Below, piece by piece: positions 17,295 to 19,052 of a stretch of 19,052 nucleotides of DNA. Source of the DNA: Gemmatimonadota bacterium (GTDB lineage: Bacteria; Latescibacterota; UBA2968; UBA8231); contig JAYPJE010000058.1 of NCBI GenBank assembly GCA_038128265.1, positions 1-19,052 of the forward strand, in the 5' to 3' direction. The notes below the pieces were generated by a model. That model was not told the origin of the DNA. It did not search any database and saw only the letters and a program-made list of their open reading frames with translations. Position 1 is the stretch's first letter; every line of letters starts with the position of its first letter. The position numbers and the translations under genes were made by a program.

Positions 17295-18422
17295 CTAATG
17301 ATCTTGCGTTCCTACCTGTAGCCACCAGGCTTCACTAGTTGGTGGGCCGGGCACCGTCAGGATCTCGCCAAGCTGCGGCGTCAGCAGGGGTACGCTGTTT
17401 TCGTCGCGCAGCTCGGCCAGCTGTCGTATGGGCTCATCCCAGTCGTGTAGCGCCAGTTCGAACATCCCCCAATGGACCGGGAAGTGGTGCTGGGCGCGAA
17501 GCGCTCGCGCTGCCTGCATAGCCTCTTCGGGAAACATGTGCACTTCTCGCCACCGCTCGTTATACTGACCGCTGTCCAAAAAAGCCACGTCAAACGGCCC
17601 GTAGCGTTCGCCGATGGTTTGAAAATGGGTGTCGTAACCCGAATCGCCGCTAAAGTAGACGGCATGCTGGGCGCTTTGAATCACCCAAGAAGCCCACAGC
17701 GTTTCGTTCGGATGGATTCCATCCCGGCCAGAAAAGTGCTGCGCCGGCGTCGCGATAAACGTTAGGTCGGGAAAGGTGGCTATTTCCCACCAGTCTTTTT
17801 CCGTCGTGCGCTCGGCGGCAATGCCCCAACCGATCAGGTGGTTGGCCACGCCCAGCGGCACCACAAACTGGGTTTCGCTGTCGGTGAAGAATTGGACGGT
17901 TTCCATGTCCAAGTGGTCGTAGTGATCGTGCGAAATCAGCACGTAATCGATGGGGGGCAGTTCGCGTAGGGCAATGGGCGGATCTTGGAATCGGCGCACG
18001 AAAAAGGGCACGGGAGCCGCTGCGCCAGAAAAGACTGGGTCGACGAGGACGATGCTGCCATCCATGTTCAGCAGAAAGCTCGAATGCCCTAGCCAGATGA
18101 CTTTGAGCGTTGCGTCCGTCGCACAAAACGCATTTAGGTCAGGGCGTTGCGAAGGCAAGAGCCCCGGCGGATGCCCCTGTGCCGGCCCGTCCCACCAGGC
18201 CTTTAGCGAATCAAAGCTGTAGATGCGTTTGTTCATGGCTTCCATCGTGCCGGGCAGGCGATTTTCAAACTGCTCCTTATCGACGTCGTAGTTTGCCGAC
18301 GAGGAAAAGCGTTCGATATCTGCGTCGGAAGGACGCGTTCCCAAGGGCGCGCAGCCCAGCAGGATCATGGCCAAACTGCACGCAACCCAATACGCCTGTC
18401 GCATCTGAAAGCTCTGTTGCAC
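17295..18422 (-). CDS. MBL-fold metallo-hydrolase lipoprotein (NAPE-PLD/RomA-like)
   Basis: Lipobox ILLGC; WLGHSS, LVDPVFS, LISHDHYDHLD, TPAQHFSGR, LWASW, YFSGDSGY, PVHWGMF. GTG start with AAGGAG RBS. Confidence 0.9.
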   Translation of the reverse strand: MQQSFQMRQAYWVACSLAMILLGCAPLGTRPSDADIERFSSSANYDVDKEQFENRLPGTMEAMNKRIYSFDSLKAWWDGPAQGHPPGLLPSQRPDLNAFCATDATLKVIWLGHSSFLLNMDGSIVLVDPVFSGAAAPVPFFVRRFQDPPIALRELPPIDYVLISHDHYDHLDMETVQFFTDSETQFVVPLGVANHLIGWGIAAERTTEKDWWEIATFPDLTFIATPAQHFSGRDGIHPNETLWASWVIQSAQHAVYFSGDSGYDTHFQTIGERYGPFDVAFLDSGQYNERWREVHMFPEEAMQAARALRAQHHFPVHWGMFELALHDWDEPIRQLAELRDENSVPLLTPQLGEILTVPGPPTSEAWWLQVGTQDH

Positions 18423-18532: not shown

Positions 18533-18578
18533 AAATAAAAAGAGAAGGCGCCAGTTGTCGATAACCAGCGCCTTCTCT
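18533..18578 (-). terminator. Rho-independent terminator of the His-rich gene
   Basis: Perfect 11-bp inverted repeat AGAGAAGGCGC (18541-18551) / GCGCCTTCTCT (18568-18578), extendable with G-U pairs, followed on the minus strand by TTTTATTT. Confidence 0.85.
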
Positions 18579-18632: not shown

Positions 18633-19052
18633 TTACTCACCTTCGTGGTGCTCACCCTCGTGATGCTCGCCCTCGTGGGTTCCACCTTCGTGGTGCTCAC
18701 CCTCGTGATGCTCGCCCTCGTGATGCTCGCCCTCGTGATGCTCGCCTTCGTGGGTTCCACCTTCGTGGTGCTCGCCCTCGTGATGCTCGCCCTCGTGATG
18801 CTCGCCCTCGTGGGTTCCACCTTCGTGGTGCTCACCTTCGTGGTGCTCGCCTTCGTGGTGCTCCAGGTGTCCGGCCTCTTCGGCGTGGGCATCCATCTCT
18901 TCGCTAGTTTCGAAGTGTAGGTCGCAGATCTGGCAGTACCAGCCATCGTGATGGTCGAGGTGTCCGGCTTCTTCGGCGTGGGCATCCATCTCTTCCCGGG
19001 TCTCGAAGTGCAGGTCGCAGATCTGGCAGTACCAGCCATCCGCATGCCCGCC
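18633..19052 (-). CDS. Hypothetical protein C-terminus with two tandem C2H2-type zinc fingers and a His/Glu-rich pentapeptide tail (5'-truncated)
   Basis: The frame is open to the window end: GGHA-DGWYCQICDLHFETREEMDAHAEEAGHLDHH-DGWYCQICDLHFETSEEMDAHAEEAGHL-(EHHEG/GTHEG)x15-E, then TAA TAA. Differences between repeat copies are mostly synonymous in this frame, and a terminator follows. Confidence 0.85.
   Translation of the reverse strand, partial: GGHADGWYCQICDLHFETREEMDAHAEEAGHLDHHDGWYCQICDLHFETSEEMDAHAEEAGHLEHHEGEHHEGEHHEGGTHEGEHHEGEHHEGEHHEGGTHEGEHHEGEHHEGEHHEGEHHEGGTHEGEHHEGEHHEGE
18639..18863 (-). repeat. 15 x 15-nt coding tandem repeat (12 EHHEG + 3 GTHEG)
   Basis: Units GAGCAYCACGARGGY and GGAACCCACGARGGC arranged 3-1-3-1-4-1-2. 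Confidence 0.95.
18855..19040 (-). repeat. Two 93-nt tandem copies encoding the zinc-finger module
   Basis: Copies at 19040-18948 and 18947-18855 differ at 8 of 31 codons: 6 synonymous, plus R/S and D/E. Confidence 0.92.

Follow-up and report, generated by a model that had tools for sequence, protein, structure and literature searches.

Examination of the window analyzed here (19,052 nucleotides, positions 1-19052 of contig C58 in the source genome, G000) revealed at its far end, on the minus strand, the C-terminal part of a gene encoding two tandem Cys2His2 (C2H2) zinc fingers followed by a tail rich in histidine and glutamate. This finger gene is real and under selection, and it places a known domain in an unexpected context, that of predicted export, a polyanionic helix, a His-rich tail, and a shared upstream operator. 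We propose, with a confidence that falls a little short of even, that outside the cytoplasm its product buffers, stores, or chaperones zinc or another borderline metal.

The portion of the gene within the window was aligned to P0001, a full-length relative of 242 residues from another assembly, and occupies positions 18633..19052 as 139 codons and a stop, with the open reading frame (ORF) still open at the window end. Its minus-strand translation begins with GGHA, continues through zinc finger 1 (DGWYCQICDLHFETREEMDAHAEEAGHLDHH, 18948..19040) and zinc finger 2 (DGWYCQICDLHFETSEEMDAHAEEAGHLEHH, 18855..18947), and ends in (EHHEG)n. Each finger is a 31-residue unit with the ligand spacing C-x2-C-x12-H-x5-H, bearing out the original prediction of two tandem 31-residue C2H2 repeats at 18855-19052. 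As had also been noted, the ORF listed for this region, an ATG-initiated frame at 18633..18989, starts within finger 1, its first codon being the M of EEMD. Tandem Repeats Finder described the fingers as a repeat with a 93-nucleotide (nt) period, 2.1 copies, 89% matches, and a score of 314. Over the 31-residue repeats the two fingers differ at eight codons, six of them synonymous and two non-synonymous, a recount identical to the six of eight reported originally.

The finger helices had been described as polyanionic. The net charge (K+R minus D+E) came to -8 in finger 1 and -9 in finger 2, and the pair contains a single Arg and lacks Lys; the linker between them is DHHDG, as originally read, and is unlike TGEKP. 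Assignment to the classical type of finger was upheld by Pfam model PF12171 (zf-C2H2_jaz), which matched the protein in two stretches (E 8.1e-11, 42.3 bits against a cut-off of 22.6). This match is far beyond chance and spans positions 2-20 of the 27 in the model, that is, the Cys knuckle and the start of the helix only. PF12874 (zf-met, 20.2 bits against 21.2) and PF00096 (zf-C2H2, 17.5 bits against 25.2) fell below their cut-offs in the window protein.

The tail comprises 73 residues (18636..18854, minus strand) made up of about 15 (E/G)(H/T)HEG units, with a 15-nt period and 14.7 copies. It is composed of 34% His (about 25 residues), 37% Glu, and 25% Gly, with no Lys or Arg, and ends at a TAA stop (18633..18635) with a second TAA next in frame. 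ORFs having at least 12 His per 40-residue window number two in the 4.29-Mb genome, and the finger gene is one of them. The other, at G000:C4:88329-90197 on the minus strand, encodes a polytopic membrane protein of 623 residues that may be a metal transporter. A plus-strand ORF of 91 codons at 18645-18920, encoding the hydrophobic repeats MVLTLVMLALVGSTF..., was set aside as antisense of the His/Glu repeats and is most likely no gene.

Retrieval of the sequence upstream, proposed with the original prediction, yielded the N-terminal half of the gene together with a predicted signal peptide. Directly past the window end are exactly 100 N (contig 19053-19152), a conventional scaffold gap lying inside the finger gene, and beyond the gap, outside the window, the N-terminal 147 codons are found at contig 19153-19595. 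This part opens with MFAKRVLVLIGLYALCVLGNPFSAVA and continues with AGHGGGEEHHEGEH, the residues AG standing right after the predicted cleavage point. The N-terminus has a basic n-region, a hydrophobic core, and an AxA site, with no lipobox and no twin arginine, in keeping with a predicted Sec-type signal peptide. Because such a peptide starts the full protein, the protein is predicted to be exported.

The N-terminal piece finishes ...EHHEGEHH plus two bases (GA), and the piece across the gap starts GGHADGWYC. The frame is kept across the gap only through chance, 2 + 100 bases being divisible by 3. P0001, whose fingers are 100% identical and whose N-terminal piece is 87% identical to those described here, reads ...EHHEGEHHEGGHADGWYC... 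at the equivalent junction, and the sequence lost in the gap may be as little as one base. Public DNA contigs from two runs extend 48 nt past the window end, into the His-rich repeat. The earlier suggestion that more fingers might lie beyond the window was not sustained, since what follows is the gap and then the N-terminal half of the gene. P0001 has exactly two fingers, and therefore the window strain likely also has two, additional fingers being unlikely; an orthologue of 309 residues, P0151, which corresponds to gene pieces in genome G002, has three. The finger gene is broken in all three genomes of the genus, by the gap in G000 and by contig ends in G001 and G002, and the nested repeats are probably the cause of these breaks.

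The 66-residue finger region was modeled with AlphaFold2 from a 10-row alignment, giving a mean predicted local distance difference test score (pLDDT) of 79 and a predicted beta-beta-alpha arrangement occurring twice. In the model, strands at residues 7-9 and 14-16 precede a helix at 19-29 in finger 1, and strands at 38-40 and 45-47 precede a helix at 50-60 in finger 2. A Foldseek search with this model returned no row at E ≤0.001; the top 50 rows were all C2H2 finger proteins, the best being 2drp_A (E 0.021, probability 0.99). The VIA structural neighbor of the finger model was ADR1 (Z 4.3), and a sequence search of the PDB returned C2H2 fingers only, with 2yt9_A as best match (E 3.5e-4). In the full-length AlphaFold model of P0001 (mean pLDDT 61), a small helical domain at residues ~45-127 is confidently predicted (pLDDT 77-95), the fingers are near 70, and the His-rich segments are below 50, from which the His-rich tail of the window protein is predicted to be disordered. 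The best VIA score for the helical domain was Z 5.2, with no meaningful structural neighbor, and no Pfam or NCBIfam model matched it (Pfam best TetR_C_41 at E 0.22). The domain contains the string LTPEER, which we take to resemble the LTXXQ motif of CpxP, Spy, and ZraP; a relationship to those proteins was considered and dropped, there being no profile match behind it.

When the finger region was searched against 1.84 billion representative proteins, 281 matches reached E ≤0.001, 14 of them at ≤1e-10, and a profile search of 5.8 billion clusters gave 44 at E ≤1e-5, each named only "hypothetical protein." All 44 clusters have fingers with a charge of -4 to -10 per finger, and 37 of the 44 passed our hydrophobicity rule for signal peptides; the seven that failed look like fragments, two having no initial M and five being truncated at the N-terminus as judged by eye. 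Charge and export were further compared in 155 proteins, comprising the 150 listed matches of the wide search and 5 others, of which 146 bear fingers. Charge was bimodal among the matches listed, with 24 proteins at -5 to -9 per finger and 122 of ordinary charge, mostly 0 to +4, and the signal-peptide rule was passed by 17 of the 24 acidic-finger proteins against 7 of the 122 with ordinary charge. The best score in the ESM Atlas was 0.81, against a lead threshold of 0.9, and shows only that small prokaryotic C2H2 clusters exist. A search restricted to proteins of 659-2000 residues gave a single eukaryotic match and was uninformative. No NCBIfam family came near its cut-off, and by these profile scans the finger protein family appears to belong to no named bacterial family, matching only the generic finger model. 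The possibility raised at the outset, that the full-length protein might prove to be a member of a family already described, thus found no support among Pfam or NCBIfam names.

Conservation of the ligands in homologs, raised earlier as a point on which the assignment might fail, was nearly complete: with a core pattern blind to the ligands, all four are in register in 70 of 71 cores from 51 proteins, the sole exception being a low-complexity chance match. The family consensus reads [WFY]-[YH]-C-x-I-C-D-[LI]-[HD]-F-[DE]-T-x-E-E-M-D-x-H-A-E-E-[AM]-G-H. Residue counts over 38 units, picked by a pattern that requires the ligands, gave E12 in 30, M13 in 36, D14 in 36, and A17 in 33 of the units, and the hydrophobic core comprises W/F/Y-Y/H ahead of Cys1, Phe (36/38), and Met (36/38). 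The acidic helix itself is thus conserved across the family.

Purifying selection, suggested originally from the synonymous differences, acts on the finger peptide, albeit as judged from small counts. In 25-codon cores, the ratio of non-synonymous to synonymous substitution rates (dN/dS) was 0.03 between the two fingers of the window gene (five synonymous and one non-synonymous difference) and about 0.1 between orthologs (0.09-0.14, using unsaturated synonymous sites only). Five synonymous sites and one non-synonymous site separate the intragenic cores in G000 and likewise in G001. At the DNA level the intragenic cores are identical in G014 (L007 1498-1725) and one synonymous site apart in G159 (L009), a pattern indicating that the finger unit was recently duplicated or gene-converted in these two genomes and that such events have been repeated.

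The family is sparsely distributed. The 66-residue query was matched in 4 of 41 close relatives, G000 included, and the profile in 5 of 168 genomes of the phylum, all from one family (4 of 75 without G000); none of the 92 genomes in the other 13 families of the phylum matched the profile. The matching loci come from metagenome-assembled genomes (MAGs) named Gemmatimonadota or Candidatus Latescibacterota, with one locus in a Candidatus Marinimicrobia MAG, and one protein cluster carries the Marinimicrobia name. Contigs at least 99% alike were found in one estuary run (X1) and one marine run (X5), the two compared for habitat out of 20. Among RNA contigs, those of an estuary metatranscriptome (X19) cover 139 nt of the finger region with no mismatch, and those of a freshwater RNA library (X20) cover 95 and 56 nt of the finger gene; the stretches concerned, L002 1209-1347 and 1513-1655, lie in the gene body. 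Since DNA carry-over is possible in such libraries, this coverage is at most a weak hint of transcription.

In the relatives the acidic finger occurs in one to three copies, and the His-rich linkers that join them measure between 0 and about 40 residues. P0151 and P0016 exceed the cut-off of PF12874. EF-hands exceed the Pfam cut-off in P0010, P0017, P0045, and P0154, relatives carrying 1 to 6 EF-hand-type loops, and P0045 also matches Dockerin_1 (26.9 bits against a cut-off of 22.9). Other partners of the finger are acidic, His-rich, and His/Asp-rich stretches, and Pfam scans of 17 family proteins turned up no enzyme domain. Judged by sequence, the companions of the finger are all small modules of extracytoplasmic, cation-binding, or disulfide type. 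A four-cysteine module, C-D-P-N...Y-P-x-N-P-P-G-x-x-G-G-C-x-D-Y-x-D-C-N-x-N-G-x-F-D-x-G-E-P-C, was seen in P0153, P0155, P0039, P0010, and P0050 and at L019 3386-4300; by eye, its center is an EF-hand-type loop, D-C-N-x-N-G-x-F-D-x-G-E, and the module matched no Pfam family. A protein of 685 residues matched in the wide search, P0004, has a signal-peptide-like start, immediately followed by numerous genuine C2H2 fingers (PF00096, 101.8 bits), and ends in a hydrophobic anchor at the C-terminus. This protein appears to be another exported or surface-anchored finger array of prokaryotic style, and the phenomenon may therefore extend beyond the acidic family.

The finger gene is predicted to form its own transcription unit. 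A strong hairpin resembling an intrinsic terminator (18541..18578, minus strand; 16-bp stem with 8 G-C pairs, followed by a T-run) lies 55 nt past the stop, between the finger gene and a downstream gene (17295-18422, minus strand) for a metallo-beta-lactamase (MBL)-fold protein (Lactamase_B_2) with a lipoprotein-like start, LLGC. The MBL-fold gene is placed alike in G001 and not in G002 or G014, a distribution that points to no functional link with the finger gene. Upstream, the regions of G000 and G002 share a block containing TGTGA-N6-TCAC. This palindrome (consensus GTGAT-N4-ATCACA) was found in all four Latescibacterota genomes with upstream sequence, G000, G002, G014 (two copies), and G159, centered 102-182 nt upstream of the start codon, against an expectation of 0.002 matches per 250-nt region; it was absent upstream at the one Marinimicrobia locus. 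The sites, all outside the window, lie at G000:C58:19703-19718 (L002 2052-2066), L014 1377-1392, L007 1925-1939 and 2000-2014, and L009 1318-1332. The palindrome resembles the CRP consensus TGTGA-N6-TCACA more than the FNR pattern TTGAT-N4-ATCAA.

Only four TGTGA-N6-TCAC[AT] sites occur genome-wide in G000. One, at C5:113925-113940, is centered 88 nt upstream of the start of a second exported repeat protein (G000:C5:113006-113920, minus strand; L023 1507-2421), which has a predicted signal peptide, an EF-hand that exceeds its Pfam cut-off, and (GDK)9 and (GGDH)n repeats, and whose gene is likewise split by a scaffold gap. A similar site, CGTGATGTAGATCACA, at G000:C25:2188-2203, is about 190 nt upstream of a very acidic 319-residue protein (G000:C25:2369-3328, plus strand) whose start looks, by eye, like a signal peptide. 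The site at C20:51235 has merely a 29-codon ORF downstream. These few cases suggest a small regulon of exported, acidic, cation-binding proteins. Operon context was examined as a further clue and discarded, the neighbors having no common theme and differing between genomes: a PhyH gene lies upstream in G000, the MBL-fold lipoprotein gene lies downstream in G000 and G001, G002 has a probable cation symporter and an SSF transporter (by eye), and G014 has oxidoreductase-like genes (by eye).

The above considerations describe a predicted exported protein in which a Sec-type signal peptide is followed by a short helical domain, a pair of C2H2 fingers, and a His/Glu-rich repeat tail. It would act in the periplasm or at the cell surface, on divalent metals, zinc first, and not on nucleic acid. 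Metal binding is pointed to because of the four Cys/His sites per two fingers, the roughly 25 histidines accompanied by glutamate, and the EF-hands of relatives. Each finger would hold one Zn(II) in a tetrahedral S2N2 site, and the tail histidines with their neighboring glutamates would offer many weaker, exchangeable metal sites; with both kinds of site, the protein would store metal, buffer it, or hand it over beyond the cytoplasm. A CRP/FNR-type regulator would control it jointly with other exported cation-binding proteins.

Several observations weigh against this proposal. No gene for a metal transporter, a metallochaperone, or a Zur/Fur-type regulator adjoins the finger gene in any of the genomes. 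Fur and Zur operators are expected as an AT-rich box; the only conserved operator found is CRP/FNR-like, a search with a Fur or Zur model not having been made, and it provides no link between expression and metal supply. In the helix, T-x-E-E-M-D-x-H-A-E-E, non-ligand residues are conserved almost like the ligands, and such a conserved surface fits a specific partner at least as well as it fits unspecific soaking up of metal. The CxxC pair of an exported protein could be oxidized to a disulfide; the G000 genome, which is 84% complete, holds one DsbA-like Thioredoxin_4 gene, and neither DsbB nor VKOR was found in it. The AlphaFold models carry no metal. Finally, signal peptides were judged by a crude home-made hydrophobicity rule and by eye, with no trained predictor.

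The constancy of the helix speaks for an alternative in which the fingers would be docking modules, stabilized by zinc, whose acidic helix is bound by a basic partner protein or surface structure; the protein would then serve at the cell surface as an adaptor or scaffold, with the His tail secondary. The shuffling of one to three fingers with modules of EF-hand and, in P0045, dockerin-like type recalls modular scaffolds outside the cell and is in keeping with this. No conserved partner gene is found nearby, however, and pure docking leaves unexplained why tail and linkers are His-rich in most members, and we regard docking as improbable on balance. The CxxC pairs of the predicted exported protein allow another alternative, in which the Cys2His2 sites would keep zinc in anoxia and release it upon oxidation to a disulfide, under FNR-like control, coupling metal availability or signaling to redox state. 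The CRP/FNR-type palindrome conserved upstream and the occurrence of the organism in estuary and marine metagenomes, as judged from contigs, would agree with such a switch. It is nonetheless purely inferred, the palindrome is closer to the CRP pattern than to the FNR pattern, and the disulfide machinery seen in the incomplete genome amounts to the one DsbA-like gene; we consider a redox switch quite unlikely.

The charge of mature P0001 (net -62, pI 4.4) raises the question of whether the protein is simply a polyanion that binds calcium, magnesium, or mineral surfaces, in cation exchange, nucleation, or adhesion, with the fingers serving as small stable folds. The EF-hand-type loops of relatives and the operator held in common with the second exported EF-hand repeat protein fit such a role, but the Pfam scan detected no EF-hand in the window protein, or in P0001, and His and Cys ligands favor soft or borderline metals over Ca or Mg, making this alternative very unlikely. 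Binding of nucleic acid, either double-stranded RNA (dsRNA) as with JAZ/U1-type fingers or extracellular DNA, would find support in the best Pfam model being that of a dsRNA-binding JAZ finger and from the H-x5-H spacing, which is that of the U1-like/matrin class. The JAZ match is, however, confined to the Cys knuckle and helix start, and reading of DNA or RNA is unlikely because of the predicted export, the charge of -8 and -9 per finger, and the near absence of basic residues. The original prediction had already argued against DNA recognition from the acidic helix and the linker, and the predicted export through a Sec-type signal peptide is a strong new argument to the same effect. We hold a nucleic-acid role to be highly improbable.

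We therefore return to extracytoplasmic metal binding as our preferred, if tentative, proposal. A bolder and doubtful extension of it is that the invariant polyanionic C2H2 finger of Latescibacterota and Marinimicrobia might be a transferable metal module for use outside the cytoplasm, perhaps storing zinc under redox control, that is shuffled with EF-hands and His-rich repeats and belongs to the regulon of exported cation-binding proteins under one CRP/FNR-type regulator.

C2H2 fingers are the archetypal intracellular readers of nucleic acid, and the studied bacterial case, Ros/MucR, is cytoplasmic. A finger that is conserved, under selection, tagged for export, and implausible as a reader of nucleic acid would represent a different use of the fold. 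If true, the finger would work as an extracytoplasmic metal or interaction module, and one must ask how a zinc-thiolate site can persist beyond the cytoplasm. The 31-residue unit is small enough for synthesis, making its zinc binding, redox stability, and affinity directly testable, and the common operator offers a way into a regulon of exported cation-binding proteins so far unstudied, in a phylum that, to our knowledge, has no cultured members. Among titles and abstracts, bacterial C2H2 fingers that are exported or acidic were the subject of no paper we found.

Predicted fold and motif place the finger in the C2H2 superfamily, where its spacing is nearest to that of the U1-like/JAZ/matrin class (PF12171, PF12874). 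With that class it shares C-x2-C-x12-H-x5-H, the predicted beta-beta-alpha fold, a PF12171 score above cut-off, the conserved Phe, an aromatic side chain two positions ahead of Cys1, and, three positions ahead of His1, a hydrophobic one that is Met here. JAZ-type fingers are intracellular and bind dsRNA via basic surfaces, whereas those of the family described here are polyanionic (-4 to -10), stand behind predicted signal peptides, and are joined through His-rich linkers. By charge and predicted location, the finger falls functionally outside the dsRNA-binding JAZ family. TFIIIA/Krueppel fingers (PF00096; Zif268, CTCF, ZBTB7A, and Tramtrack, 2drp) share the predicted fold and provided the top PDB sequence and structure neighbors. 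They have H-x3-4-H in place of the H-x5-H found here and a TGEKP linker that is lacking here, and the window fingers score below the PF00096 cut-off. In addition, the TFIIIA/Krueppel recognition helix is variable and basic, whereas that of the present family is acidic and hardly varies.

Ros/MucR proteins are regulators that bind DNA in the cytoplasm; their single finger has a larger and different fold and a shorter ligand spacing. Like the window fingers, they have a bacterial Cys2His2 zinc site, as an excerpt of a published account describes (PMC9779718). The window protein differs in its x12 spacing and two tandem units and is not a Ros/MucR protein; the ROS_MUCR profile gave no row in the Pfam scan up to E 10.

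A parallel to the predicted location and composition is offered by His-rich metal proteins. In ZnuA, with its His-rich loop, and in SilE and Hpn, flexible stretches rich in His (with Asp/Glu or Met) capture metal ions. We know of no C2H2 finger in any of these, or in CopI, and the Pfam and NCBIfam scans found no sequence kinship between His-rich metal proteins and the finger protein. The His-rich domains of CopI serve in periplasmic metal capture, according to an excerpt of the report on that protein (PMC13308877). What the finger protein would have in common with these periplasmic metal proteins is the combination of an export signal with a flexible His-rich segment, both of which are predicted here.

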